IMG/VR virus record: IMGVR_UViG_2847060657_000007
Location: 1-64,000 of that record
Reading direction: 5' to 3' (one strand)
DNA from: a virus
Taxonomy: Duplodnaviria; Caudoviricetes
Length of the DNA: 64,000 nt
Each line of letters begins with the position of its first letter. Positions within the stretch are counted from its first letter, which is position 1. Below the pieces are notes generated by a model that saw nothing but the letters and a program-made list of their open reading frames with translations, searched no databases and was not told the DNA's origin. Position numbers and translations under genes: made by a program. Positions 8,088 through 64,000 of the stretch are shown in pieces.

Positions 8088-10491
8088 AAAAATTTAAACC
8101 TCTGCTTCGTATATCTGATTCTGTCATTATGGGAGCCAAGGATGGATCTGTGTTCTTTTTGTAATAAGCCATTGGCAAGAAATACTCGTATGAGTCTATA
8201 CTTCGTGTATCCACAGTAATCATATTACCCTGATTACCACCTAATCTGAAAAAATTCTTTGAGTTTTGCCGTCCCAAAACAAAGCATACATGACTACCTT
8301 TTTTGGTAACAGCAATTGCACCATATGCAGGAATAGAGATTTTTTGAAAATTTACTTTATCTCTTTTATAGGCATGAGCTCTAACTCTTTCATATATATC
8401 TTTTTGCTCATTAATAGGTAGTGTATAACCACATTCTTTTAGACACGAATTTATAAAAGCAGCACACCATTGATGTATATCTCCAACTAAATTAGGGTAA
8501 GGTATGCCAACAATTTGATGATAGTTATCTGTAATTTTTCCCTCTTTAACCCCCTTCCATTGCCTTCCTTCTCTAATGGCGATTTCCATCCAAGGGGCAT
8601 TAGACTCTGAGATAGCTATTGCTTGAGCTGGCGGTCTTATAATATTACAAGAACTAACTTTAAAAACCCGCAAGCATTTTTTAAACTTATCAACCCTTTT
8701 TTCTCTAGAGCTAGTATTTTTATTTACAATATCTACAGTTTTATGAAAAATATCTATGGAATTACCTTTTTGCGCTACATCTCTTACACCAAAAACAACC
8801 CAATAAGCCATAGAAGCAATTGTGCCCTCCTCAATGTTGTTGATGTTATCGGGAGTTATGATTTTATTGAAATTTGGTAAAAATTTTTTGATAGTATCAT
8901 TAATTTTTTGATACTTATCTTTCCCCGTTACCTGAATAATACCTCCGCCACGATACCTCCAGCCATCTCCTGAACTTACACTTCCATTACCCATTCTGTT
9001 GGCATAGGCAATGTTGGCAATCGCCTCCTGATTTGCTTTTTGACCTGGTTTTCCGCCCCTGCCATATCTTCTTGAAAGCTCTATATTTCCACGAAATGCC
9101 TTAAAATCACCCTTATAAAGAGCCTCCCAACTATAGTTTAAATTTTCACCATTAATTTCAAATTTTTCTCCTATCTCTTGCATAACATGAGCAAAGAAAT
9201 GTGCTTTTTGATTGCAATCATTCATCATAAAAGCTTTACTTGCATAGTTGTAAGCATTAACACAAATTTTAAGCTTTTCAACAGTTGCAGAATCTTGCGA
9301 AAAAAGTTGCTTTAATTCATCAAGTGTCAATTCTTGGCATCCAGAACAGGAACTGGTAGAAACCACCACCTTCGGTGTCCCACCCTCTTGACTTCTTTCG
9401 TTTTGTTCGGTTGTTTGTACGGGTTTTATTTCTGTTGGTTTTGGTGCTTGGGATGGTGTTTGGGTTTGGGATGGTTTGTCATTAAACAATCCTGATACAG
9501 CGTCTAATGCATCGTCTTTGACTTTGCCCGCTGTTTGACTGACCACATCAACACCCTCATTGAAGATTTTTGACCCATAGTCAATGGTTTGTTCGAATTT
9601 ATCTTGTATCGGTTGGGTTTTTTGGTCTAGCCAGTCCATACCATCACCAAAAACCTCTTGTACTTTGTCTAGTATACCACCACTTTGGCCACTTGTGGAA
9701 GGGGCTTGAGTTGGCACAGGTTGTGATGATGGTTTTGTGGCAGGTTGTGCAGGCTTAGGCGTGTTGGGCAGACCTGTCTTGATGTATTTGCCTGCCTGTA
9801 TTTTGTTGGGGTCGGTAATGCCATTTAGGCGTTGTAAGTCAGAGATGGACTTGCCACTACGCTGGGCAATACTACCCAAAGTGTCGCCTTTTTCTATTTG
9901 ATAATTTGAGGTGGTGATTTTGGGTTTGGTATAGGGATTGGTTTGGGTGTTTTTGGTTGTTTGTGTTTTGGTGCCTGCACTTGCATCAGAATCTTGTAAA
10001 CCACTGTTTTTGGGTGGCACTTTTAAAACCCAGCCCACTTGAATTTTGTTAGGGTCTTTGATTTTGTCTTTGTTAAGATGATGTAGGATTTGCAAAGTTG
10101 TGCTGTATTGCTTGGCAATACCCTCTAGGGTTTCGCCTTTTTTGACTGTGTGGGTTTTACGGCGATAATCACCTTGTGTACCTTGTCTTGGCTGTAGTGT
10201 GATGGTTTGTTTATAGCATGGTGCTTGTACTCTGGCAATATAGGCATTGCTTTGATTGGGCTTTTGAACAATGATGCGAGCAGATAAGGTGGTCATCGCA
10301 CCTGTTTTTGGGTCTTTTACTGCGATGTCAAGTACACTTCCAATACGACGTCTCATCCATACGCCATACCCTTCACCATCAGAGTTGCCGGCACTGATGG
10401 TGCGCCCATTTTCACGGATTTCGTGGTAGAGATTGGGCATGGGCTCATTGCACAAATCGTGAAAGAGGATGCGAAGGAGGGTGGTGGGCAT
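8065..10491 (-). CDS. LysM-LysM carrier + GH19 lysozyme + TIGR02594 (NlpC/P60-like amidase) peptidoglycan effector
   Basis: AHFFAHVMQE...ENLNYS...GDGWRYRGGGIIQVTGKDKY (GH19); APWMEIA...WCAAFINSCL...HVCFV...LGGNQGN (TIGR02594); GGAG RBS upstream. Confidence 0.85.
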   Translation of the reverse strand: MPTTLLRILFHDLCNEPMPNLYHEIRENGRTISAGNSDGEGYGVWMRRRIGSVLDIAVKDPKTGAMTTLSARIIVQKPNQSNAYIARVQAPCYKQTITLQPRQGTQGDYRRKTHTVKKGETLEGIAKQYSTTLQILHHLNKDKIKDPNKIQVGWVLKVPPKNSGLQDSDASAGTKTQTTKNTQTNPYTKPKITTSNYQIEKGDTLGSIAQRSGKSISDLQRLNGITDPNKIQAGKYIKTGLPNTPKPAQPATKPSSQPVPTQAPSTSGQSGGILDKVQEVFGDGMDWLDQKTQPIQDKFEQTIDYGSKIFNEGVDVVSQTAGKVKDDALDAVSGLFNDKPSQTQTPSQAPKPTEIKPVQTTEQNERSQEGGTPKVVVSTSSCSGCQELTLDELKQLFSQDSATVEKLKICVNAYNYASKAFMMNDCNQKAHFFAHVMQEIGEKFEINGENLNYSWEALYKGDFKAFRGNIELSRRYGRGGKPGQKANQEAIANIAYANRMGNGSVSSGDGWRYRGGGIIQVTGKDKYQKINDTIKKFLPNFNKIITPDNINNIEEGTIASMAYWVVFGVRDVAQKGNSIDIFHKTVDIVNKNTSSREKRVDKFKKCLRVFKVSSCNIIRPPAQAIAISESNAPWMEIAIREGRQWKGVKEGKITDNYHQIVGIPYPNLVGDIHQWCAAFINSCLKECGYTLPINEQKDIYERVRAHAYKRDKVNFQKISIPAYGAIAVTKKGSHVCFVLGRQNSKNFFRLGGNQGNMITVDTRSIDSYEYFLPMAYYKKNTDPSLAPIMTESDIRSRGLNFYETNSTT

Positions 10492-51972: not shown

Positions 51973-53832
51973 CTTGCATTATACCCACCAAACCCCAAAA
52001 TAACACTTCAAACCTTCTTCGATTGTATCAAACTCTGACAAATGACTTCTAAGTCATCTCTTAATCGTTGCCCAAGTTTGCTCTATTGGGTTTAGCTTGG
52101 GTGAGTAAGGTGGTAGTGGTAAGATGATGTGTTTGTATGGTATGTTATTGATAAGCTCTTGCAAGTGTTTCATTCTGTGAAATCTTGCATTGTCTAAGAT
52201 GATGATACAAGGCTTGCCTGTTTGTTTGGTGTGATTGTTAAGACAAGGCAGTAGCATTTGTTCAAACCACGTTTCAAACAAAGCACTTGTCATTGTATTG
52301 TTGTAGATGAGTGGAGCAATCAGGTTTTTGGCTTTGCCCCCTATTTGTCCTGCCACTAAGGAGACTCGTTGATAGCGTCTGCCACTGACTTTATCATAGG
52401 CTCTTTGACCTTTTAGGCTTCTTGCATGAGTACGGTGCAAGTAAGTATCAATGCCTGTCTCATCTATATAGACAAGCTCGTAACCTTGTTTGGACGTAGC
52501 TTGTAGTTGTGTTAATTTGTCTTGGAAGTCTTTGACTTTGTTTGGGTCTTGCTCTTTGTGGGTTGTGGTCTTTTTTTAAGAGTAATGTTCATTGCTTTGA
52601 GTGCTTTATGGATTGCCATATCACTACACCCAAATACTTCACCAATTTCACGTAGGTATTTGTCAGGATTTGCTTCTACCTAAGCAAGAAGCTCTTTTCT
52701 GTCAAACTTTCTGGGTCTGTTGGTGGGTTTTTTACAAGACAAATTGCCTGTTTCTTTAAGTTGTCGTCTCCAACGAAACACGGTGTGTCTTGATACACCA
52801 AAAGCTTCTATAACAAGGTCAATGTTCTTGCATTTGTCATCATAAGCCAAGGCTTTTTGTCTGATTTCTAGTGAATAAGCCATATAAGTAGTGATTGGTG
52901 AATGGTGATGGAGATATGGGGATAATTGGTGTTGTTTTAAGGTTTGTTGGTTATACAACCCAACCGCAACACCAAATAACATAAAGAAGCGTTCATCAAT
53001 TTAATGTATTATTAAGTCACCACACAAAATAAAGCATTAAAGAGCATGAACACTTCTTACAAACATCTTAGCATAGATGAGCGTGAAAAGATAATGGTTT
53101 TGTTATCTTTGGGTAAATCTATGGGTATAATTGCCAAACAATTAAACAGAGCCAAGTCCACCATTTGCCGTGAAATCAAGAGAAATGGCGGTGTTGACAA
53201 TTATTTGGCAATCAAAGCAACTTGTCTTTACCAAACAAGAAGACAAGCCTGTCGCCCGAGCTTAAAGCTCACCAATCCGTATGTATTTAACTTGGTACAA
53301 GACAAGCTATTTAACCATCAATGGTCGCCTGAGCAAATACAGCATCGCTTAGCCCTTGAAGGTAGCCAAATAACGGTGAGTTATGCAATCATCTATCGGG
53401 GTTTGTATCAAGGCTTGTTTTGTTACTTTGGTAGATAGATGTAGTCGTTTTTTAATTTGCACAACCGTCAAAGCCAAAAAAGCAACCTTGGTCAGTCAAG
53501 CCATCATCAATGCCTTAGTGAATCAGCCTGTGCATACAATCACACCAGATAGAGGGAAAGAATTTGCCAAACATCGAAAAATAACAGACCACTTAAAAGC
53601 AACCATCCACTTTCCACCACCAAGACAGCCTTGGCAAAGAGGAAGCAATGAAAACACCAATGGGTTATTAACAGAATATTTCCCCAAAGGGTCTGATATT
53701 AACCAGTGGGACAATCAATACATACAAACAAAGGTCGCCAAACTCAATCTGCGACCTAGAAAATGTTTAAATTGGCGAACACCTTATGAGGTCTATTATC
53801 AAAAGGTGTTGCAGTTAGTTTGATGATTCAAG
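51973..53832 (+). mobile_element. Second, defective IS30-family element (internal deletion) with IS630 nested in its left IR
   Basis: ORFs 53046-53438 and 53383-53823; the segment between YQGLF and ACFVTLVDR, including the DTV motif, is missing; IRR TGTTGCAGTTAGTTTGATGATTCAAG; IRL split as CTTGCAT...CAACCCAACCGCAACA. Confidence 0.8.
51982..52953 (-). mobile_element. IS630-family element, pseudogenised
   Basis: MAYSLEIRQKAL HTH with nonsense TAG at 52680; A7 slippery site (LKK); YIDETG, ILDNARFH, YSPKLNPIE; TA-flanked imperfect IRs. Confidence 0.8.
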
Positions 53833-53853
53833 GGTTAAATTGGGTACGGATTT

Positions 53854-53881
53854 GTACGAGCGAATTGCAATTCGCCCGTAC
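53854..53881. repeat. REP-like palindrome
   Basis: GTACGAGCGAATTGCAATTCGCCCGTAC. Confidence 0.5.
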
Positions 53882-54266
53882 GGTTTAATGGTAAATCCCA
53901 TATCGTTTTGAAGTTTATAAATTATAACTTTTCGCCAATGGAATTTTATTAAAACAACTTAAATGTTTAATGCAATCTTATCAATTTTATTTACCCAAAA
54001 ATCCTTATTTTGATTTTGAGCACAAAATAAACCCCACCACAATAAATTAACCACACTCTCTGCAATAAATGGGATAATTCGAAATGATAAGGTATGATGT
54101 GGGATAGGGTATTTGAAAGAGCGTTACACTAGGTGAAACAAATTGACAGGTCAAAAACTTTTTTGAGATGAGAAAAGGTGGGTGTCATCATTCGCCTTAT
54201 ATACCTTCCTTATTTTAGCACATAAGGCAGTATAAATACTATGGGGTTTTATTTAAGGAAAATAAA

Positions 54267-55175
54267 TCAATCCAAAATCTCTAAACATGCCAAGCCTTCC
54301 AGCATAAAGTTAATATACTTTTTGGTTTGGTTGAGTGCTGGCTTATGAGCCATAATAAAGACTTGATGTGGTTTTTTACTAACCAACTTTCTGATATTTT
54401 CTATGCTAAACCTGGTTAGTTCTGTCCTTTCAATCAATTCCTTTGAAATAAATATTGTTGGTCTTATGGCACATCCAGCACTTTCTTTGAGACTTAACAA
54501 ATCCTTATCACTCAATGTATCGGCAAATCTAATAAGAAAATCGCCACTGTTTATCTCGTTTATCCAAGCCTTGCCATAATAAATACGCCAGCAATCATCT
54601 TCAAGCTCTGATAAATCTTGCCCTGCTATTTCAATAAAAATGTCTTGTAAACCCTTTCTTTCTTGAAAGGGTATTGGCAAGGTCAAAAGATAGTTCTCTT
54701 GATTTAAAAAAGCAGACACAATAACAGACAGTCTTTGTCTGCTATTTACTTTTCTTTTGTGGGTGTTATTATTCTGTTTTGGGCTGTGTCTTTTGATTGA
54801 TTGCAAAGAGTTACGGTCTAAGTCATCATCGTACTGCTTTTTTGGTGCTGGTTCTGTTAGGTCAAATAGGATTTCACCACTTTGCACATTTTGATAATGA
54901 CTGTCATTATCTGATTGGTTACGGGTAATCTTGGCAAGGTTTTCTTGTCTGCCTAACTTGCAATCAATCTTGTGATTTTCTACTGAGCGAAAGTGTGGCT
55001 CTACTTTGCGTTCGTTTTTAGGTTTGGATAGATTGACACAAGTTACCGCTATGCCACACAAAGGGCAAGTAAAATTCTTTTGGCTTGCAATCTTGCCAGC
55101 CTGATACGCAATATCAGCGTCTTTGGGATTGATGACTTTTTGTAAATCCAATGAGTAGGCGTTAGGTAAGGTCAT
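54267..55175 (-). CDS. Hypothetical protein with N-terminal CoiA-like zinc-finger motif
   Basis: FTCPLCG...PHFRSVENHKIDC (CxxC...H...H...C); 302 aa open frame. Confidence 0.55.
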   Translation of the reverse strand: MTLPNAYSLDLQKVINPKDADIAYQAGKIASQKNFTCPLCGIAVTCVNLSKPKNERKVEPHFRSVENHKIDCKLGRQENLAKITRNQSDNDSHYQNVQSGEILFDLTEPAPKKQYDDDLDRNSLQSIKRHSPKQNNNTHKRKVNSRQRLSVIVSAFLNQENYLLTLPIPFQERKGLQDIFIEIAGQDLSELEDDCWRIYYGKAWINEINSGDFLIRFADTLSDKDLLSLKESAGCAIRPTIFISKELIERTELTRFSIENIRKLVSKKPHQVFIMAHKPALNQTKKYINFMLEGLACLEILD

Positions 55176-55261
55176 TGTAGTGCCTGGTGGTTGCTAATTT
55201 GAAATTTATCATAGCAATTTTTAAGAAATGGCACAAGATGGATAAAGTGGCAAAAGGTTTA

Positions 55262-56025
55262 AAAAGTGCCGATGTCGACACATTTGAAAATATTGGACAA
55301 AAGCGACGATGTCGTCGTTTTATCTCTGTTTTTGGATTAATTCAATAAGGTAATGCTGGCATTGCTTTTGACCATCGTTAGCTTTTAAATGTGCCACTGG
55401 CGGTACATTTAAGACTGGTAGCGGTTATCACTTCTATAAATTACCCGACGTCGGGTAATTTAGAAAATGAAACAGTCTTTCAAATGTCCCGCTGGCGGGA
55501 CATTTGAAACAGCGTTTTAAAAAAATCAGATAAGAACAATAATTACATAAAATGGACGCCAGCGTCCATTTTAAACATTTAAAATAGCGGTCAAAAATGG
55601 TCATAACCGCCTTCATTAGCATTGTTGAGAGTTGAACCAACATTCAATAAAAAAAGAGTATAATAAAGCTTGTCTTTTATGTTTGCAGACATCTGCGAAA
55701 CAGTCATCAAAATTATCAACCAATAGCAAAAATCCCGACATCGGGATTTTTGGGTAAAAGTGACGCCAGCGTCATATTTGAAATGTTAGAAAAGTTCCGC
55801 CAGTGGGATTTTTATAAATCGGACGATGTCGTCCGTTTTGATAAAATGCTGAGCAAAAGCGACGCTGGCGTCGTTTTTATAAGTGGTTTGATTTTTGAAA
55901 CGCTGTTTCAAAGGTAACGACATCGTTACCTTTGAAAGGCTATTTCATTTTGACGTTAGCCTCTTAAAATGCACGCTGTCGTGCATTTTGGACAATCTTT
56001 TAAATCGGAAAACGTTTTCCGATTT
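55262..56025. repeat. Array of 13-14 degenerate ~24-bp palindromes, AAA-N5-CG(A/C)-(TG/CA/CG)-(T/G)CG-N5-TTT
   Basis: Copies at 55262, 55299, 55387, 55438, 55482, 55549, 55729, 55756, 55790, 55816, 55855, 55910, 55966 and a variant at 56002. Confidence 0.8.
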
Positions 56026-56223
56026 GCCAATAAAAAACCGCCCCAAAGCCTTAAACATCAAGGCTTTGGGGCGGTAGCGAGAACGCTTAAATGAAACCAA
56101 CCGTTGCACTTGTTGGCGGATGTATTATAGCCCAAAATGGGGAAAAGCGAAAACGGTTTTCGCTTTTAGACGGTGATTTTTTAAACCTGTTTGAGAAAAT
56201 TTGAATCAAAAAGTAAAAAATGC

Positions 56224-56252
56224 TTGACAATGTCCCATAAAATTAGCATAAT
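56224..56252 (+). promoter_or_regulatory. sigma70 promoter of the satellite-like operon
   Basis: TTGACA-N17-CATAAT. Confidence 0.7.
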
Positions 56253-56407
56253 GATTGTGTTACTGCAAAATCAGTAGCCAGCCGTGAGAAGCTGAGTATT
56301 AACAACAGGCTAGCAAGCCGTATTTGTCATTATCGCAGTCTACAATGATTGCTTTATGTAATGATAAGCGGTTTTTTGTTTGCACCCCTTTTATACCTTT
56401 TCTTTTT

Positions 56408-56487
56408 ATGGTGGATAAGGGGCAAGGCGGGCTTATGCTCGGCTGGTGTCTGTTGTGCCAGTTTCTCACCCTTGTCCTTTATCCATC
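56408..56487 (+). ncRNA. c4/CI-type antisense RNA (P1/P4-like immunity region)
   Basis: Closing stem GGTGGATAAGGGGCAAGG / CCTTGTCCTTTATCCATC; loop CAGTTTCTCAC is complementary to the upstream leader GTGAGAAGCTG; leader ACTGCAAAATCAGTAGC typical of ash/c4 regions. Confidence 0.65.
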
Positions 56488-56546
56488 GCCCTATACGTGA
56501 GAAATATAGAGCGGTATTTTACGATACAACAGAAAAGGTAATCCCT

Positions 56547-56819
56547 ATGACCACTTCCAATCATTCCCATTCTGGCAATCCTAATTTTAATAGCACCAGT
56601 CAACACCCCATCAGACCAAAGCCAAGCTGTGTTTGGCAAAATGGGCAATGGCTACTTAACGACGAAGCCTACAATCACCTTTTGAATGTGCGTGATACTT
56701 TGCTTGCATTTAGTAGCTATGCTCGTATCAATAACGATAAATGCAGTGATGCCCTATTAAACACTTTGGGTATGCTATCGGACATGATGACCAGCACCCT
56801 AGAAGCCCAAGAGTCCTAG
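56547..56819 (+). CDS. Small phage/satellite protein downstream of the c4 region (possible longer ash-like frame from 56349)
   Basis: ATG with AAAGGT RBS; 90 aa; position matches icd/ash-type genes. Confidence 0.45.
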   Translation: MTTSNHSHSGNPNFNSTSQHPIRPKPSCVWQNGQWLLNDEAYNHLLNVRDTLLAFSSYARINNDKCSDALLNTLGMLSDMMTSTLEAQES

Positions 56820-57015
56820 TCAATATCGTTGCAATCCTTTGATTAAAACCGCCTAAAAATACTTTTGGGCGGTTTTTGTTTTTAAAGTATTTTCTTAAAA
56901 CGTTTTCATGGAGAGTTTGTCGCCTGTTTTTGTAAAATGTTTTTAAAAATTTGGCAAGCCTTTTAGGTCTGCTTGATTTTTTTGTTATTTTATTTATCAC
57001 TTTTTAAGGTGTTTT

Positions 57016-57363
57016 ATGAGCAAAATCAATGCACAAGATGAACAGCAGTACGAAATGGTGATGGCAATCTCAGAATTTTTAAAAAATGAGAAGCTAGTCG
57101 CCAATGATTGTGATGGTGTGGCAATGCGATTGTATGAATGCCTGCAAAAGGTTTTTGGTGGTTGCAACATCTATTTTAAAAAAGGTGTTGTTGGGCAGGC
57201 GGACGAAGAAGGTCGGCAAATGCTGATAGACCAAGACAGAGGGCTTAGTATTCATCAAATTGCCCAAAAATATCAAAAGACCTGTCAATCCGTCTATAAA
57301 AAACTCTCAAAGGCACGAGCAGAAAGACGCAAGCAAAATAATGAAAACTTTGGAGCTTTATAA
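57016..57363 (+). CDS. Mor/C-family transcription activator
   Basis: FGGCNIYFKKG followed by HTH GLSIHQIAQKYQKTCQSVYKKL. Confidence 0.65.
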   Translation: MSKINAQDEQQYEMVMAISEFLKNEKLVANDCDGVAMRLYECLQKVFGGCNIYFKKGVVGQADEEGRQMLIDQDRGLSIHQIAQKYQKTCQSVYKKLSKARAERRKQNNENFGAL

Positions 57364-57374
57364 GGTGGCAAACA

Positions 57375-58085
57375 ATGAATAACTTAGAAGTAAAACGCTT
57401 TCAAATTTCAAGAACGGGCGTGCATACAGACAGTAACGGCAATGAACATACTTTTTCTGATACGCTATTTAATAAACTGGTAACACGATTTAATCAACTG
57501 GCAAATCATGGTAATCAACAAACACCCTTATATCTTGAACATCCCCAAAGCAAAGCTGATAATGACCCAACACGCCATCAAAGCTATGGTTATGTGTCTA
57601 GCCTTGAATTGGATAATGGGCGATTGTATGCGGTGGCGTGGGTTAATCGTGAGCTTATCAATTTGGTAAAAAGTGGGCAATATAAGGCGGTATCAGCTGG
57701 CTTTATGAAAGTGGGTGATGATTTGTGGCTAGACCATGTCGCTTTTGTCAAAAGACCTGCGGTAAAAGGCATGGAAGTGCTTAGTTTTTCAGAGCATTCT
57801 TTTGTGCAAAACTGTGTAACAGCATTGGTAAATACCCATAATTTTAATGCTGGCAATACCATTCATGAAAATGCTTTGTCGTGGATGAATGCTTTTAATA
57901 CTGATTATGAAACAGCAGTTATTTCGGTGATGCGTGAGCAAGCAAATACTGCTAATTTTTCAAAAAGAAACAGCAATAACCAATCCTATCAGTTGCACCA
58001 AAAAGCGTTAGCTTACCAAGCCCAATACGGCGTAAGTTATGAAGTGGCGGTGCGTGAATGTTTAAAACAAGGGGCTACTCTATGA
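57375..58085 (+). CDS. Mu-like prohead protease/scaffold (I/Z-like)
   Basis: PLYLEHP...YGYVSSL...KSGQYKAVSAGF...LDHVAFVKRPAVKGM; C-terminal LHQKALAYQAQYGVSYEVA scaffold-like helix. Confidence 0.7.
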   Translation: MNNLEVKRFQISRTGVHTDSNGNEHTFSDTLFNKLVTRFNQLANHGNQQTPLYLEHPQSKADNDPTRHQSYGYVSSLELDNGRLYAVAWVNRELINLVKSGQYKAVSAGFMKVGDDLWLDHVAFVKRPAVKGMEVLSFSEHSFVQNCVTALVNTHNFNAGNTIHENALSWMNAFNTDYETAVISVMREQANTANFSKRNSNNQSYQLHQKALAYQAQYGVSYEVAVRECLKQGATL

Positions 58086-58711
58086 GCAAATCAACCATTA
58101 AAAATGATATTGCTAAAATTAAAAACGAAATTCAAAAATGGCACGATGAATTAAAGCAGTTGAATCAAGAAAAATCAAGCTATGAAATGCAAATCAAAGA
58201 ACTTGAAATGATGCCTGTAAACCGTGCGGATTTTGGTGTATTGCTGAAAGAATCTATTGCACAAGAAGCAAATAACTACACCAAAAACATTGCTCAAAGC
58301 CTATTGCAACCTGAATTTTCTGATAAAGAAATGCAAGAAAAGCACAATGGATTTAAGGCAATGAATGAAAGAAGTCTTAAAGACTTTGAGTGGTGCAAGA
58401 ATAATCAAAGATTTGAATGGTTGTTTAATGCTTTTCGTAGCCATAAAAACATAATCACACCAAGCAATAGCACAGAAACAAGGCAAATGTTATGTTGGTT
58501 AATACCTGATGTGGTGTATGAAAAAACCATGCACATTATCAATACCGAAATAGGCGACGAATGGGGGAATGATGATTTACCAAGCATTAGTGAAAGATAT
58601 GAACTAATTTTATCATTAAAGGAGAAAATTAGTTCATGCCAAAATCGGATTGATGAATTACAAGGGGTTATTGATGAGATGAGTTCAATAACAATTAAGC
58701 CTGAAATTTAA
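58082..58711 (+). CDS. Hypothetical coiled-coil protein of the satellite-like operon
   Basis: ATGA-type overlap with the protease stop; heptad-rich termini. Confidence 0.55.
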   Translation: MSKSTIKNDIAKIKNEIQKWHDELKQLNQEKSSYEMQIKELEMMPVNRADFGVLLKESIAQEANNYTKNIAQSLLQPEFSDKEMQEKHNGFKAMNERSLKDFEWCKNNQRFEWLFNAFRSHKNIITPSNSTETRQMLCWLIPDVVYEKTMHIINTEIGDEWGNDDLPSISERYELILSLKEKISSCQNRIDELQGVIDEMSSITIKPEI

Positions 58712-58714
58712 GTG

Positions 58715-58754
58715 AAAAAAACACCTTTAATGTAAAAAATTAAAGGTGTTTTTT
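58715..58754. terminator. Bidirectional terminator-like hairpin
   Basis: AAAAAAACACCTTTAAT-N7-ATTAAAGGTGTTTTTT between convergent genes. Confidence 0.65.
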
Positions 58755-58838
58755 GTTTTGTGTCATAAATAAATTGAAATGCCTTTACACCAAGTGAAAG
58801 AAAAATTTTGTTTGTTTTATTGCAAACATTTGATAGTT

Positions 58839-60419
58839 TTATCGTGTTGCGTAACAACAAAACGCTTCAATGACCTTAAAGACATTATCGCCAAATCCAC
58901 CAACATTTAACACATCATTGCCATTTTTGGCTTGGGAAGAGGTATAAGGCTGTAAATCCACGCATATTAGCTTGGCATTAGGGCAACGCTTTTTTAAAAT
59001 TCGCCATTCTTTCATCATTTGTGTGCCACGCCCAGACTGCTCGTCCGCCCACGATTCATTGTCCGAAAAATAAATCATCACATCAATCTTTGCTTTTTGG
59101 CGATTTAATTCGGCAAGCGGTAAGGCGGTGTGTGTTCCGCCCCCGCCAAACTTGGCAAGCCGTTCGGCTAAGGCAAGCACATCAACGGCAGGCGGTGTTT
59201 GGGCGGTGTCCGCTTTGCCAAAGGCGGATTTTAGGCGTACACTAAAAGGTTTTTTGCCTGTGATTTGACTAATATTATCATTAAAATCAATCACTTGGTG
59301 CAAACGGGTATCAAAGGGCATAATCATCGCTGTGGGGTTGGCAACCTTCATCGCAGACGCAAACAAACTTGCCACATCAATGCACCGCACCTGCGATGTC
59401 GCCCCACGCCGATAGCCCATTACGGGCGAGTGCATAGAGCCTGACACATCTACGCCGATGGCGATTTGCCCGTCAAGGCGTGGCACATTGGCAAGGGCGT
59501 GGCTCATCGCCGTTTTTAGGGCGTTTTTGATGACGGCAGGAACATCATCGCCCAGAGCCTGCCAAGTGGCGTAAAGCTGATAGGGAAAGGCACGGGCGTG
59601 TTTGACCGCCTGCTCGTCCGCTAATTTATCCGCCAGCATTTGCGCCATACCGTCCACGCCAAACACGCCGTGACGGACAAAGGTGTTTAAATTCATTCGC
59701 ACCATTTGCCACGAGCCTTGTTTGGCAAGGCCTGCCCAATGCTCCGTTGTCAAATCAAGCGACATCAGCCACTCAATGGGCAAGTCGGGCAAGGGCTGTT
59801 GGTTGTCCTTTTGAAAGTCAAGGAGCGAGCGAGCAAGGGGCGGTAAGTGATTGTAATTAAAGTCTTTTTGCAACGCCCATTTGATAAGGGCTTCGCTCTT
59901 GTCATCAAAAGGTTTTGGGTGGCTTAGGCGAATGACATCTCTTAGGGTGGGTTTATTGCCGATATTGGCGTTAATAAATTGTCTGTCGCTAGCGGTAAGT
60001 AACCACTCATTCACCAAATTTTTGGCAAAATTACCCAAACTTTTACGCCCAACCGCCCCGCCCCGCATTACCTGAACAAAGTTTCTAAGCTGTTTGCCAT
60101 TATTGACAATGTCCTTAAAAATGGCTTTGGCAAAGGGCTGACCGTCCGCCTTAACGCACAAAATCGCCAAAAGCACAACGGGCGTGTCTTTCATCAAGGC
60201 GTGCTGACGGGCGTATAGGGCAAGTTTTGCCAAAAATGCGTTGTCAATTTTGTGTGCCAAATCAATGACTTCGCCAATCTGCTCGCCCCCTGTGACATAA
60301 AAAGTCTGGTTAAAAGTCCCCGTACACACAAGCTGAGCAAGGGCTTGTTTGGGGCTTAACTCGTACGCCTTGCCCCCTTGGTGGTTGGTGGTTTGGGGGT
60401 TAAAAATGTTGGTGTTCAT
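58839..60419 (-). CDS. rsr: Ro60-related RNA-binding protein (TROVE + vWA)
   Basis: NHQGGKAYELSPKQALAQL..TG.FN.TFY; LRNFVQVMRGGAVGRKSLG; QMVRMNLNTFVRHGVF; vWA DVSGSM...SDNESW; GGAGA RBS. Confidence 0.92.
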   Translation of the reverse strand: MNTNIFNPQTTNHQGGKAYELSPKQALAQLVCTGTFNQTFYVTGGEQIGEVIDLAHKIDNAFLAKLALYARQHALMKDTPVVLLAILCVKADGQPFAKAIFKDIVNNGKQLRNFVQVMRGGAVGRKSLGNFAKNLVNEWLLTASDRQFINANIGNKPTLRDVIRLSHPKPFDDKSEALIKWALQKDFNYNHLPPLARSLLDFQKDNQQPLPDLPIEWLMSLDLTTEHWAGLAKQGSWQMVRMNLNTFVRHGVFGVDGMAQMLADKLADEQAVKHARAFPYQLYATWQALGDDVPAVIKNALKTAMSHALANVPRLDGQIAIGVDVSGSMHSPVMGYRRGATSQVRCIDVASLFASAMKVANPTAMIMPFDTRLHQVIDFNDNISQITGKKPFSVRLKSAFGKADTAQTPPAVDVLALAERLAKFGGGGTHTALPLAELNRQKAKIDVMIYFSDNESWADEQSGRGTQMMKEWRILKKRCPNAKLICVDLQPYTSSQAKNGNDVLNVGGFGDNVFKVIEAFCCYATR

Positions 60420-60463
60420 AACCAATCTCCATTTATGAAGTTATACAAAAAGATAGAAAAATT

Positions 60464-60695
60464 TGGTGGACACGACGGGATTCGAACCCGCATCTGTGCT
60501 GTTACTGCCATTTTTAGTCGTACAGCCGAGCAGTCTTATTGGAAACGCGCGCCAGTAGTAGACCATTTGCCATAGCCAGTACCTGCATCTGCAACCGTAC
60601 CAAGACCCCCGCTTGCGAACAACACCCAGTTTTACCCAGACTACCCAAGACCCAATCGTTTTTGGTAGCGTCGCCCCCTGTATGACAGCGTGCCC
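60464..60695 (-). ncRNA. Unannotated 232-nt tRNA/tmRNA-like RNA upstream of rsr
   Basis: 5' GGGCACG pairs with 3' CGTGTCC followed by A-CCA (G3-U70 wobble); T-arm GCGGG-TTCGAAT-CCCGT; starts about 15 nt below a sigma54-like -12 box. Confidence 0.75.
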
Positions 60696-60708
60696 GTATT
60701 TATCATTA

Positions 60709-60725
60709 TCCAAATCTTGTGCCAA
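60709..60725 (-). promoter_or_regulatory. sigma54-type -24/-12 promoter
   Basis: TTGGCAC-AAGAT-TTGGA: correct GG spacing, GG instead of GC at -12; divergent from rtcR. Confidence 0.6.
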
Positions 60726-60753
60726 CTTGGGAAATTTTGGGAAAAATAGTTTT

Positions 60754-60766
60754 TAAGTAATTGATT
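60754..60766 (-). promoter_or_regulatory. IHF-binding site
   Basis: AATCAATTACTTA is an exact match to WATCAANNNNTTR and lies between the promoter and the putative UAS. Confidence 0.55.
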
Positions 60767-60829
60767 TTTAATGGATTAAAATTTTAACATTGGAGAAATT
60801 TTAGTATTGGCTTGTAAAAATTTTGGGAA

Positions 60830-60853
60830 AAATCTATAATATTAGATAGATTT
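60830..60853. promoter_or_regulatory. Candidate RtcR upstream activating site
   Basis: Inverted repeat AAATCTAT-N8-ATAGATTT, 105-130 bp upstream of the -24 box. Confidence 0.45.
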
Positions 60854-60879
60854 ATATTTTTTTATTCTAGGTAATTTTA

Positions 60880-61038
60880 ATGGAAAATTTAGAAAATGAT
60901 AAAATCACAACCCAAAATCAAGGGCGTTTTGATGATGTTTTTGGCATTTTAACCGCCACAACAGGGGCGAGTGTTGAAGAAATGAACGAAGCCATTATTG
61001 AAAGTGCGTGTGAATTTAACAAAGATTTGGAAGATTAA
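60880..61038 (+). CDS. 52-aa small ORF resembling the C-terminal half of AbrB/VapB-type antitoxins
   Basis: MENL...FDDVFGILTATTGASVEEMNEAIIESA; stop 2 nt before the rtcR ATG; below the ORF-track cutoff. Confidence 0.45.
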   Translation: MENLENDKITTQNQGRFDDVFGILTATTGASVEEMNEAIIESACEFNKDLED

Positions 61039-61040
61039 TA

Positions 61041-62627
61041 ATGAAAAAATCGGTCATGCTTGGCTTTTTGGGTACGGTGCTGGACGATGGATTTAGCCAA
61101 AGACGGCACGCCAAATGGCGACCGAATGTCAATGTGCATAGGGTAATGGCGTTTGACCGTGTGGAGCTGTTTATTTCGCCAAAATATCTGGCACTTGCCG
61201 AGCAAGTGGTGGCGGACATTAAGGAGATTCGCCCAGAAATCACGGTCAATTTGGTGGATATACCCCTTGACAATCCGTGGGATTTTGGCGAAGTGTATGA
61301 AAAATTAGCAAGTTGGGCGGACAGCTATCCTTTTGATATTGAACAAGAAAATTATTTTACCCACATTACCACAGGCACGCACGTTGCCCAGATTTGCCTG
61401 TTTTTATTGGTGGAAAGCCGCCAAATTCCAAGCCTACTTTTGCAGACCGCTCCGCCCAAAGACAGCCCTTGCCAAGTGGAGACGATTGATTTGGATTTGG
61501 CTCGTTATGATGCCCTAGCCAGTCGCCTAAGCAAGGTCAAGGACGATGCGGTGCGGTTTTTGAAAACCGACATTGCCACCAAAAACCCCACCTTTAACGC
61601 CCTAATCGGGCAAATTGAACAAGTGGCGATGGGTTCAAAGTCGCCCATGCTGATTATGGGGGCGACTGGGGCGGGCAAATCGCAACTGGCACGGCGAATT
61701 TATGAGCTTAAAAAGGCTCGGCATTTGGTGGCGGGGCGGTTTGTGGAAGTCAATTGTGCAACTTTGCGGGGCGATATGGCGTATTCGGCTCTGTTTGGGC
61801 ATAAAAAAGGGGCGTTTACGGGGGCGATGACGGCACGGGACGGCTATCTTTTGACCGCTCATCAGGGCGTGCTGTTTTTGGACGAGATTGGCGAGCTTGG
61901 GGCGGACGAACAGGCGATGCTTTTGACTGCGTTGGAAGACAAACGCTTTTATCCGATGGGATCGGATACGCCTGTACACAGCGATTTTTGGCTCATTGCA
62001 GGGACAAATAAGGATTTGAAAGCGTGTGTGCGGGCGGGAACATTTCGGGAAGATTTGTACGCCCGTATCAATGTTTGGCAATACACCCTGCCCGCCCTAA
62101 AAAACCGCAAGGAAGACATCGCCCCCAACATCGCCTATCAGCTTGACATTGCAGGCTTTGAGCTTGGGCGGAAAGTGCGGTTTGGCAAGGAGGCGTATGA
62201 GCGGTATTTGGCGTTTTGTATGAGTGATGGGGCGGTTTGGCGGGGCAATTTTCGGGATTTATCGGCGAGTATTTTACGCCTTGCGACTTTGGCAAATGAT
62301 GGCAAAATCAATGAAAAATTGGTTAATGATGAAATTGGGCGTTTAAAAGAATTATGGGCGGACGATGATAATCAACTTGACAAAAAGTCCAATATTAATA
62401 TTAACCCCGAATTGTTAAATAAAATCAATGCCCAACATTTAGATGAATTTGATAAAATGCAATTATTAAATGTCATTAAACTTTGCCAATCCCACCCCAC
62501 GATGGCAAGTGCAGGACGGGCATTGTTTAATCATTCACGGCTGGATAAGGCAAGTGGTAATGATAGCGATAGATTAAGGAAATATTTGAGGAAGTTTGGG
62601 GTGAGTTGGGGGGAGATTAAGGGGTAA
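61041..62627 (+). CDS. rtcR: RtcR, CARF-domain sigma54-dependent activator
   Basis: KWRPNV, DNPWDFGEVY, HITTGTHVAQICLFLL (RtcR N-domain); GATGAGKS, LFGHKKGAFTGA, FLDEIGEL; NDSDRLRKYL. Confidence 0.95.
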   Translation: MKKSVMLGFLGTVLDDGFSQRRHAKWRPNVNVHRVMAFDRVELFISPKYLALAEQVVADIKEIRPEITVNLVDIPLDNPWDFGEVYEKLASWADSYPFDIEQENYFTHITTGTHVAQICLFLLVESRQIPSLLLQTAPPKDSPCQVETIDLDLARYDALASRLSKVKDDAVRFLKTDIATKNPTFNALIGQIEQVAMGSKSPMLIMGATGAGKSQLARRIYELKKARHLVAGRFVEVNCATLRGDMAYSALFGHKKGAFTGAMTARDGYLLTAHQGVLFLDEIGELGADEQAMLLTALEDKRFYPMGSDTPVHSDFWLIAGTNKDLKACVRAGTFREDLYARINVWQYTLPALKNRKEDIAPNIAYQLDIAGFELGRKVRFGKEAYERYLAFCMSDGAVWRGNFRDLSASILRLATLANDGKINEKLVNDEIGRLKELWADDDNQLDKKSNININPELLNKINAQHLDEFDKMQLLNVIKLCQSHPTMASAGRALFNHSRLDKASGNDSDRLRKYLRKFGVSWGEIKG

Positions 62628-62635
62628 TTTGGGGG

Positions 62636-62662
62636 TGTAAGGTGCGTAATACGCACCTTACA
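62636..62662. repeat. REP-like palindrome / terminator
   Basis: TGTAAGGTGCGT-AAT-ACGCACCTTACA, 12-bp perfect arms between convergent genes. Confidence 0.55.
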
Positions 62663-62664
62663 AA

Positions 62665-63109
62665 TCAACAAAGAACCACATTTAATTTTCTTTCTTTTAA
62701 AATATCAACAATGATGTCTTTTTCTTTAAAATTACTTTCATTAAAATCACACCAATAGACAGTAATATCCTTAACGCCAAAAATATCAAAACAATCATCA
62801 AATCCATCTAAGTCAGAACCAAAATACCCACCAATACCCACCAATACCCACCAATTGTTCAGAAAAATAACATAAAAATGAATTTTTGCTTTGTATGTCT
62901 TTGCCAGAAATGTGAATGGTTTGGTTGTATTTATGATGTTTTCTATTATAATAATAACAAGCCCTTAGCCACTCATATTTTTCTTGTTCTGAATAATTAA
63001 TCCAGCACTTTTGTTGTTGTTTTATCATCTTATTTATGTGATACAATAATTTATCATGAGAAATCCCACTTTCATCATTGATAAAATATTCTTCCAATAA
63101 AACTTTCAT
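62665..63109 (-). pseudogene. Barstar-family protein frameshifted by a 10-bp tandem repeat expansion
   Basis: ATACCCACCA x3 at 62824-62853; removing one unit restores VGIGGYFGSDLDGFDDCF...IIVDILKERKLNVVLC* (145 codons). Confidence 0.75.
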
Positions 63110-63198
63110 GTAATGCTCCATTTTACAGCAAACATTCTTCACTAACAAAAAGAAACACAAAAACCAAAAATTAAAGTGTTTGCCTTATCAATTAAAAA

Positions 63199-63645
63199 TC
63201 AACCAAAAACCAAATTGATAAAATTATGTTCGTATAACTCATTGTTTTTATCAATACAAATTTTACTGACAAATAAATAATCAATCCAATCCGTATTTGG
63301 CAATAGGCTATTTAATTCATTAACAATTTGGGTTTCTGATTTTTCTTGAAAAATTTTTTTAATAAATCATTTACCAAAGAAATCACATATTGATTTCTTT
63401 GGCACTCATCGGACAGCTGGTATTCTTGAATTTTTTCAAAAAAATTTATGGGCAATAAAACCACCATCTGAGTCAATATAATCATTACTCCAAAAGATAT
63501 AACCACTCCATTTTGGGTCAATAATCAATTTATCAAGTTCATGATGTATTTCATTACCCCGCTCTTCGCTATGATTACCACCCACAAGTTCATTAATTAA
63601 CTGTGTAATTTTTTCTTTTTGAATGGCGTTCATAGCTTTATCCAA
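63199..63645 (-). pseudogene. Tandem-domain bacteriocin-immunity-like protein with two homopolymer frameshifts
   Basis: Joined frames give ...ELDKLIIDPKWSGYIFWSNDYID... and ...ELNSLLPNTDWIDYLFVSKICID...; shifts at A/T runs near 63440 and 63355. Confidence 0.55.
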
Positions 63646-63658
63646 TCATTATCACAAA

Positions 63659-64000
63659 TCACCCCAACACCCCCTGCACACCCTGCCAACCAACCTTCAC
63701 CCCAAGTCCGACCAGCACCCACAGGATAAGTGTGCGAAATTTGGCGGACGGCAGGCGTTTGCCAAGCCTTGCCCCGATGACAATGCCAAGCACCGACAGC
63801 ACGGTTAAGCCGATTATCATCGTCCAAGTTTGGGTAGGCACTTCTAATAAAACTTCTTTTAAAACAATGGCTTGTACCAATTTATTGACAAAATAACACA
63901 AATTCCCAACTTTGATAATCGTGTCCTTATCATCGGTCATTGAAAGTAGATACATCAAAAGCACGGACGACATCGCATTGGTTGCCCCGCCGACCACGCC
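63659..64000 (-). CDS. TauE/SafE (TSUP) family membrane protein, 3' part
   Basis: GGATNAMSSVLLMYL; hydrophobic helices; FRTLILWVL..LG; 5' end lies outside the window. Confidence 0.7.
   Translation of the reverse strand, partial: GVVGGATNAMSSVLLMYLLSMTDDKDTIIKVGNLCYFVNKLVQAIVLKEVLLEVPTQTWTMIIGLTVLSVLGIVIGARLGKRLPSAKFRTLILWVLVGLGVKVGWQGVQGVLG

Follow-up and report, generated by a model that had tools for sequence, protein, structure and literature searches.

A tRNA-like RNA of about 230 nt with an alanine identity set, encoded in RNA-repair operons of Proteobacteria

The locus between rtcR and rsr

The window, by which we mean the whole 64,000 nt stretch of DNA analysed here (positions 1 to 64,000 of IMG/VR record IMGVR_UViG_2847060657_000007), includes an RNA gene that lies on the minus strand between the divergently oriented regulatory gene rtcR and the Ro60 gene rsr. 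The features of this part of the window are the following.

58839..60419, minus strand: rsr, encoding a Ro60 orthologue of 526 aa (Pfam vWA_Ro60 and TROVE)
60464..60695, minus strand: the complete 232-nt RNA gene (G1 at 60695, last A of CCA at 60464), recognised from its sequence and from a full-length match to covariance model R1 (221 bits)
60709..60724, minus strand: sigma54-type -24/-12 box, TGGCAC-aagat-TTGGA, recognised from its sequence
61041..62627, plus strand: rtcR, encoding the divergent sigma54 activator (Pfam RtcR, 2.2e-61; Sigma54_activat, 1.4e-48)

Read on the minus strand, 60464-60695 starts with GGGCACG and terminates with CGUGUCC-A-CCA (the 3' terminus is GUCCACCA), and the two ends form a seven-pair acceptor stem made up of G1-C72, G2-C71, G3-U70, C4-G69, A5-U68, C6-G67 and G7-C66. 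An acceptor stem with G3-U70, a discriminator A, an encoded CCA and a T-arm had been proposed for this stretch from the sequence alone, and all four were confirmed on the minus strand. The start of rsr lies 45 nt 3' of the RNA on the same strand, with no terminator in between, and rtcR starts 346 nt upstream of the RNA on the opposite strand. The sigma54 box, in which G replaces C at -12, is 13 nt before G1, and the position of the box places the predicted transcription start 3-4 nt before G1. The RNA thus sits immediately behind a sigma54 promoter, beside rtcR and ahead of rsr, in agreement with the original prediction of an RNA at the head of an RtcR-controlled Ro60 operon. RtcB is absent from the 85-kb record, and the module in the window has Ro60.

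The record is labelled as a provirus. The same rtcR-RNA-rsr locus is found in at least 26 complete chromosomes (2.7-2.96 Mb) of the window's species, where no gene has been called for the RNA, and the other flank of the window locus consists of ordinary cell genes, for example TauE. We read the window locus as host DNA adjoining Mu-like phage remnants.

Family membership, fold and acceptor end

When the window and the RNA alone were compared with Rfam 15 using both gathering and E-value thresholds, no family was matched, and ARAGORN found no tRNA, no tmRNA and no tag in the window. The earlier view that the RNA lies outside the known families was thus upheld by Infernal and ARAGORN, neither of which returned a high-scoring match. 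Relatives were collected from a starting set of 80 loci encoding Ro60 relatives, retrieved with an alignment of Ro60 relatives, and four contigs with the closest Ro60 proteins; a single Ro60 protein used as query had given no match in genome contigs or viral contigs. A BLAST search of the Ro60-locus set with the RNA gave full-length matches of 67-78 % identity, and the carriers were Moraxellaceae-like contigs, five Variovorax genomes, three Undibacterium genomes, Ideonella, a Pseudomonadota MAG and a Hyphomicrobiaceae MAG. Alignment and folding of 14 sequences (MAFFT/RNAalifold) produced a single consensus fold with compensatory changes in 34 of its 65 pairs, and the covariance model R1 was built from this alignment. 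Within the starting loci, R1 scored members at 113-260 bits and everything else, including tRNAs and the T-arms of YrlA genes, at no more than 31 bits.

The family was enlarged by a motif scan of metagenome contigs and by model searches of genomes, and the full-length relatives overall score 89-260 bits against R1, compared to 31 bits at most for everything else. It consists of 56 full-length members, 52 of them distinct, which range in size from 162 to 301 nt (median 233) and come from Alpha-, Beta- and Gammaproteobacteria. Members were present in 6 of 151 Moraxellaceae species genomes and in 4 of 151 genomes of the Variovorax family, and the five carrier genomes checked hold a single copy each. 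The Eleftheria terrae megaplasmid carries an unannotated copy 22 nt before its RtcB gene. No match was found in viral contigs by the motif scan, or in phages or E. coli genomes by BLAST.

Support for the fold comes from 46 distinct sequences, in which 98.3 % of the cells pair, compared to 36-51 % when the partners are slid by 1-3 columns. Changes on both sides are seen in 36 of the 65 pairs, and none of 500 shuffles reached the observed values. The folding energy of the single sequence is no better than that of shuffled sequences (z = +0.55) and is uninformative, so the support beyond chance is comparative. As the metagenome members were gathered using a central-domain motif, conservation of this motif is inflated in alignment A3, and the motif varies among members that were found without the scan. 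The stretch 60464-60695 is a real, conserved, structured RNA, and its family is missing from Rfam 15; for this class R1 provides a covariation-backed model of 231 positions. The parts of the RNA, listed here from its 5' end, are as follows.

60689..60695, minus strand: acceptor stem, 5' strand GGGCACG, positions 1-7, pairing with 60468-60474
60670..60686, minus strand: D-like hairpin, positions 10-26, with a 3+1 bp stem and GG in the loop; covarying pairs GC/UA/AU/CG across the family
60641..60668, minus strand: hairpin H3, positions 28-55, with a 5-bp stem CUACC/GGUAG (28-32/51-55); compensatory changes in 3 of 5 pairs
60626..60639, minus strand: hairpin H4, positions 57-70, of the CUGG-GUAAAA-CUGG type (in the family also CUGG-GUAAAA-CCAG); compensatory changes in 3 of 4 pairs
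60618..60625, minus strand: long-range helix H5, 5' strand, positions 71-78, pairing with 60496-60503; compensatory changes in 7 of 8 pairs
60527..60611, minus strand: central domain, positions 85-169, with a helix of 11 bp, an apical hairpin and internal loops that are conserved, GUUUCC among them; 10 of 11 pairs of the basal helix covary
60504..60526, minus strand: hairpin H10, positions 170-192, with a variable loop; compensatory changes in 4 of 7 pairs
60496..60503, minus strand: 3' strand of long-range helix H5, positions 193-200; a linker of 4 nt (60492-60495) comes next
60475..60491, minus strand: T-arm GCGGG-UUCGAAU-CCCGU, positions 205-221, invariant except for a GU/GC change at the closing pair
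60464..60474, minus strand: acceptor 3' strand CGUGUCC (60468-60474), discriminator A (60467) and encoded CCA (60464-60466); A73 and CCA each in 51 of 52 distinct relatives

The 8-bp helix H5 closes the inner domains and occupies the place of the anticodon stem of a tRNA or of helix P2 of tmRNA. The loop of H3, which is 18-23 nt long, opens with AAAAACG in the window RNA and with AAAAAYG in the family. The size range of the family includes a 162-nt relative, L225, from which the whole central domain is absent, and the Ideonella relative has an insertion of 60 nt in H10. A candidate pseudoknot would join the H3 loop (AAAYG) to CG.UUU of the central internal loop; these bases pair in 99 % of the cells compared to 52 % or less when slid, in a pairing that was picked after a scan of all column pairs and includes double changes in only three cells.

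Two nested helices had been suggested for the part of the RNA that replaces the anticodon arm. One of them, GGUCUU/AAGACU, is part of the 11-bp covarying helix, but the other, GCUACCA/UGGCAGU, did not hold: CUACC pairs with the GGUAG of H3, and UGGCAGU belongs to the hairpin 170-177/186-192. The CGAC near the 5' end, which was likened to the D-loop region of tmRNA, forms the 3' side of the D-like stem, covarying with its partner (GUC/GAC versus GGC/GCC), and there is no conserved UCGAC.

In the 46-sequence alignment the acceptor pairs 1-72, 2-71, 3-70 (G-U) and 7-66 are invariant and the pairs 4-69, 5-68 and 6-67 covary; the acceptor stem occurs in seven variants, with compensatory changes at these three pairs. 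Comparison of homologous loci therefore bears out the conservation of the stem and of G3-U70, together with covariation. G3-U70, like A73 and the encoded CCA, is kept in 51 of the 52 distinct members. The exceptions are a divergent member, L215, which has G3-C70 together with G73, and L082, in which CUA takes the place of CCA. Given L215, alanine identity is not universal in the family.

Alanyl-tRNA synthetase recognises its substrates by G3-U70 and A73, an identity set that works even in minihelices. As the G3-U70 pair survives while the neighbouring pairs covary, it is under selection as a G-U pair. In the YrlA genes of the same loci, position 3-70 can be G-U, A-U, G-C or C-G, so the strictness of G3-U70 is specific to the tRNA-like RNA family described here. 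The alanine identity set of the original prediction is present, and all of the sequence elements of the identity rule for alanyl-tRNA synthetase (a 7-bp stem with G3-U70, A73 and CCA) are conserved in the family. At the level of sequence, the RNA carries every known mark for alanine charging, and an open acceptor end with G3-U70 and A73, which sets it apart from YrlA, makes it most likely that the RNA is recognised by alanyl-tRNA synthetase and probable that it is charged by this enzyme. The retention of G3-U70 could have a cause other than the synthetase.

Operon context and transcripts

The RNA is always encoded on the strand of the repair genes, and the family loci include five arrangements. 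In the first, found in the window, in Undibacterium and in three metagenome contigs, a divergent rtcR is followed by the sigma54 box, the RNA and rsr. In the second (Variovorax, Ideonella and others), the order is rsr, YrlA, RNA and rtcB. The third, seen in 15 loci in which Ro60 is absent, has a divergent rtcR and a Band-7/SPFH gene, with the RNA 12-96 nt later and rtcB a further 20-50 nt on. In the fourth, from the Moraxellaceae, the RNA lies between rtcB and rtcA, with a PIN-domain gene also in between in one case. The fifth consists of a sigma54 box, the RNA and a gene for a fused kinase and T4 Rnl1-type ligase. In the Band-7/RtcB loci L227 and L228, the spacers encode small proteins and no RNA.

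An rsr gene is within about 1 kb in 26 of 59 family loci, with Ro60 upstream of the RNA in 19 and directly downstream of it in seven. About half of the relatives are without a nearby Ro60 and have a Band-7, RtcB, RtcA or kinase-ligase gene as neighbour instead. The claim that the RNA works with Ro60 consequently fits the window, where rsr adjoins it, but does not extend to these relatives, and no protein partner common to all of the loci was found.

In all loci in which the RNA is the first element, a sigma54 -24/-12 box ends 13-16 nt before G1. Where the RNA follows another gene or YrlA there is no such box, and it must therefore be cut from a longer transcript. Contigs that cover the RNA were recovered from bovine metatranscriptomes. 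Two runs of one study gave contigs of 222 and 212 nt that cover 60466-60687 and 60469-60680, respectively, and hence the RNA alone, and two runs of another study gave contigs with one end within rsr, at 60250 and 60285, and the other at 60669 and 60680, which join the RNA to the start of rsr. None of the RNA contigs extends past 60690, that is, to the promoter. Four substitutions fall within the RNA in the metatranscriptome contigs, of which two keep or improve a pair, one disrupts a wobble pair and one lies at an unpaired position. The contigs fit a transcript that starts just before G1, runs into rsr and yields a stable RNA of approximately the predicted size. The predicted transcript is covered by them but its exact ends cannot be derived, as the contigs are assemblies from mixed samples of relatives that are about 97 % identical, and could also stem from DNA.

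Related RNAs and possible roles

The family bears on what the RNA-repair operon (RtcB, RtcA, Ro60) repairs and on the purpose of its tRNA-shaped RNAs. YrlA cannot be charged because its acceptor stem is closed. Many RNA-repair operons also hold an open-ended tRNA mimic with alanine identity, kept almost without exception across three proteobacterial classes, and this mimic is frequently what the RtcR promoter yields first of all. The RNA of about 230 nt folds independently, is stable and is non-coding. We consider it reasonably likely that it is a dedicated tRNA mimic that serves as a cofactor of RNA-repair modules under RtcR/sigma54 control and that its open acceptor end is used. In Salmonella, RtcR firing follows tRNA damage. 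Once RtcR fires, transcription starting 3-4 nt before G1 would yield the RNA as the first product, or the RNA would be cut from a longer transcript, and RNase P would trim its 5' end, taking off either the short leader or whatever was transcribed upstream. With its encoded CCA, the RNA would then have a tRNA-type 3' end that alanyl-tRNA synthetase could charge, and the conserved body (two extra hairpins, the long closing helix and the central domain) would most likely bind proteins of the module, with Ro60 as the partner in the window and Band-7, RtcB or the kinase-ligase in other loci. Processing, charging, the cofactor role and any part in ribosome repair are what we infer from these features, and a scaffold role like that of YrlA would be the conservative reading within the cofactor model. 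In this form it becomes testable whether repair modules exploit the acceptor end of such a mimic, via charging, EF-Tu or access to the ribosome.

YrlA is a tRNA mimic that is bound by Ro60 (PMC4201824), and is a permuted tRNA in which the acceptor stem is closed by a loop and the ends form the Ro60-binding stem (PMC4201824; bioRxiv 10.1101/312249). It has also been proposed that tRNA-like RNAs are cofactors of RNA ligation (bioRxiv 10.1101/312249). Like YrlA (RF02553), the RNA examined here is a tRNA mimic encoded on the strand of rsr in RtcR/sigma54 operons. The T-arm, GCGGGUUCGAAUCCCGY, is identical in the two, and many YrlA genes have a near-identical acceptor 3' strand followed by ACCA, which suggests, on the basis of sequence, either that the tRNA-like modules descend from a common ancestor or that one partner reads the T stem of both. 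However, YrlA is about 115 nt long, is circularly permuted and has GNCGAA(N)G in its Ro60-binding end stem, whereas the RNA is about 230 nt long, has open ends in the acceptor stem, includes extra domains and has no conserved Ro motif.

The identity of the RNA as a YrlA was rejected on topology, Ro motif and model score. The ends of the RNA pair as an acceptor stem and nothing follows the CCA, so it is not permuted; the true YrlA arrangement was observed in L046, L051, L067 and L044. The YrlA model, which has a gathering threshold of 69 bits, found no match at E <= 1 over the 8 kb from 56000 to 64000, nor at E <= 10 on the RNA alone. GNCGAA(N)G occurs in 4 of the 52 members, in the apical loop rather than near the 5' end, and is absent from the window RNA. 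The apical loop itself (GGCAAAUG in the window RNA; GGCGAAYG in three relatives) was considered as a Ro60 motif and set aside, as too few members have it. In addition, a model-confirmed YrlA directly adjoins the RNA in three loci, namely those of Variovorax, Ideonella and L225.

The original prediction held that the known partners of Ro60 are not CCA-ended in this way, which was too strong, since YrlA of Mycobacterium smegmatis is cleaved by RNase P and then receives CCA (PMC4201824). The cleaved form is, like our RNA, a Ro60-associated mimic in which the acceptor stem has 7 bp, the 5' end is of the RNase P type and the CCA is free, but it arises by cutting of the closed loop, giving an RNA in two pieces to which CCA is added later (PMC4201824), whereas here the RNA is in one piece with an open end and an encoded CCA.

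These comparisons bear on the possibility that the RNA is a Y RNA of another topology, that is, a relative of YrlA with acceptor-stem ends that would be the host's Ro60 partner and would tether Ro60 to PNPase or another effector. The contigs that join the RNA to rsr, and so indicate co-transcription in the window, the lack of a YrlA match within 56000-64000, the T-arm and acceptor 3' strand shared with YrlA and the proximity of rsr in 26 of the 59 loci are all consistent with it. Nevertheless, we think it unlikely, as the RNA is not a replacement for YrlA in the three loci where the two lie side by side, the 15 Band-7 loci are without Ro60 and others have only RtcB/RtcA or the kinase-ligase, and neither the Ro motif nor the YrlA model finds support in the RNA.

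A second type of tRNA mimic, b7a-tRNA, is described second-hand (bioRxiv 10.1101/312249) as having been predicted by Burroughs & Aravind in 2016 beside Band-7 and RtcB genes, and sometimes Rsr, as unvalidated, and as one that is said to 'strongly resemble an authentic tRNA'. Going by that description, it is like the RNA in being a tRNA-like RNA of Band-7/RtcB operons, at times with Rsr, the setting of the third arrangement above. The RNA is three times longer and lies downstream of Band-7, and is set apart from b7a-tRNA by that second-hand description, so that the two may overlap. In 19 Band-7 loci from 401 Pseudomonadota genomes, we found tRNA-like genes of about 75 nt upstream of Band-7, with odd anticodon loops and often in tandem, and no member of the family of about 230 nt. 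We think that these shorter genes correspond to b7a-tRNA, as far as a second-hand description allows, and that the RNA of about 230 nt represents a further class. Hence, the RNA adds a third class to the tRNA mimics of RNA-repair operons, beside YrlA and b7a-tRNA (the latter compared by description). The literature searched contained no paper linking such an RNA to rtcB, and as far as could be checked there, the family is undescribed. The earlier claim of novelty therefore applies to the family of about 230 nt but not to the kind of RNA, as tRNA mimics in RNA-repair operons were already known.

The RNA was also predicted to be tmRNA-like, and this description suits the acceptor and T-arm half and the overall topology. 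The RNA shares with the tRNA-like domain of tmRNA (RF00023, RF04321) the G3-U70, A73 and CCA of the acceptor end, a T-arm whose stem is GCGGG/CCCGC and, in place of the anticodon arm, a long helix closing a large insert. However, it differs from tmRNA in that there is no tag frame and there are no PK1-PK4, and in having a D-like stem where tmRNA has none. The only candidate tag frame, starting at position 126 (GCA AAU GGU ... UAA), was examined and dropped, as its stop is lost in Variovorax and the frame is not conserved; variation in the putative tag region follows base pairing and not codons. The tmRNA model RF00023 gives 12.4 bits on the window RNA, over a 15-nt piece of the T-arm, and 15-25 bits on the relatives, the same as on ordinary tRNAs and well short of its gathering threshold of 47. 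With lax filters, the best resemblance of the RNA alone in Rfam was to the acceptor piece of permuted tmRNA (22 bits). The tRNA model RF00005 found no match, and the RNA lacks an anticodon arm and has 232 nt compared to the 70-95 nt of a cloverleaf. All five carrier genomes tested have a separate canonical tmRNA (191-214 bits). Identity with tmRNA was rejected on the frame, the scores and the separate tmRNA.

These features also have to be weighed for a second alternative, according to which the RNA would be a tmRNA-like rescuer without a message. Charged with alanine, it would enter ribosomes that RNA damage has stalled, at their empty A site and with EF-Tu, perhaps with SmpB or with its own extra hairpins replacing the anticodon arm, take over the nascent chain and pass the ribosome to the repair enzymes. 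We regard this as improbable. The topology shared with tmRNA and the resemblance to the permuted tmRNA acceptor piece are in line with it, as are two permuted-tmRNA calls that ARAGORN seeded at a relative's 3' end. In some bacteria RtcB is paired with the rescue factor PrfH, which we also count for this reading. Against it are the reading frame and stop that are not conserved, the absence of an ARAGORN tmRNA and RF00023 scores that ordinary tRNAs also reach, the D-like stem, the canonical tmRNA that the carrier genomes keep, and the 162-nt member that does without the entire central domain. Improbable as it is, were it true it would amount to a second, damage-specific pathway resembling trans-translation that couples ribosome rescue to repair by RtcB, Ro60 or Band-7.

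A further alternative, which we consider very doubtful, is that the RNA would act as a bait or amplifier, either as a decoy for tRNA-cutting toxins or as a source that is cleaved to give 2',3'-cyclic-phosphate ends which feed back on the CARF domain of RtcR. It draws on the many loci in which the RNA is the first thing made from the RtcR promoter, on the 5-bp stem of H3, which resembles an anticodon stem and bears a large exposed loop, and on the response of RtcR to damaged or nicked tRNAs, as outlined in PMC7790460 and PMC10159003. Nonetheless, at 18-23 nt the H3 loop is unlike any anticodon loop, and it would be left unexplained why the central domain and G3-U70 are so strictly conserved.

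Finally, that the RNA is a cis-acting leader controlling rsr, a decayed tRNA or tmRNA gene or the remnant of a phage attachment site might be suggested by its location in the 5' untranslated region of rsr in the window and by the provirus label of the record. We find this scarcely credible, because the RNA was not found in the phage or viral collections, most relatives are downstream of rsr or Band-7 or lie between rtcB and rtcA, RNA contigs cover the RNA alone and the strong covariation excludes a decayed gene.

Repair genes and tRNA-like genes in related loci

The 232-nt tRNA-like RNA and its covariance-model relatives lie next to several types of repair gene in the loci compared with the window (L-numbers, each in its own numbering). 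In several of these, a gene encoding a P-loop kinase (AAA_33) fused to a T4 Rnl1-type RNA ligase is found directly 3′ of the RNA (L082 5814–6854, L136 4730–6214, and also L090, L212 and L213), occupying the position held by RtcB in other family loci. A PIN-domain gene, located between the RNA and rtcA in L089 (2665–3114), forms part of one rtcB-RNA-PIN-rtcA unit and thus places a nuclease within a repair operon. Arrays of 5–12 tRNA genes or T-arm-bearing elements were present ≤2.5 kb from the Ro60 gene, rsr, in L075, L063, L078, L081 and L035, which are Acidobacteriota and Caulobacterales MAGs.

Loci L226–L244 contain tRNA-like genes of ~75 nt, often in tandem, between rtcR, which encodes the sigma54 activator, and a Band-7 gene, after which comes rtcB. 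Examples are:
L228 2917–3062
L241 2992–3138
L243 3074–3147
For several of these genes, the ARAGORN call has an 'anticodon' of 2 nt. Matched by description, they are probably the Band-7-associated tRNA-like RNA (b7a-tRNA) predicted by Burroughs & Aravind; they are a separate kind from the 232-nt RNA of the window.

Annotation of the RNA family

ARAGORN also reported 'permuted tmRNA' genes in L100 (459–1129) and L160 (9495–9961), with implausible tags. Both calls were seeded on the T-arm, acceptor and CCA end of family members and are probably false, and automatic annotation could likewise mislabel the family RNA as permuted tmRNA.

L134, a Band-7 locus that includes a family member, has a canonical sigma54 box (TGGCAC-N5-CTGCA) between rtcR and the Band-7 gene (9355–10060), and the ~500 nt after it contain a T-arm-like element, GUGGGUUCGAUUCCCGC, where ARAGORN gives no call. 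Judged from sequence, this region may encode an additional unclassified RNA.

Extent of the provirus and flanking features

Remnants of Mu-like elements and ISs, convergent with rsr, occupy 53383–58711 of the window and include:
within 53383–58711, a piece of an rve integrase
57016–57363, Mor
57375–58085, a Mu-like protease or DUF2213 protein (weak)
The rtcR-RNA-rsr unit, like TauE on its far side, has the appearance of host DNA, so the provirus label of the record is probably too wide.

A 52-aa open frame (60880–61038, +), which begins MENLENDKITTQ and stops 2 nt ahead of the rtcR start codon, has no Pfam match on record; the annotation of the species' complete genomes lists it as a gene too (L246 9382–9540).

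A C4 antisense RNA (RF01695) was matched above threshold at 56404–56493 (+; 59 bits), with weaker matches to the a1/b1 target of C4 and to isrK just upstream (56246–56327, +). Together (56246–56493, +) they resemble, in sequence, a P1/P7-type immunity RNA cassette, and this candidate lies where the window derives from phage.
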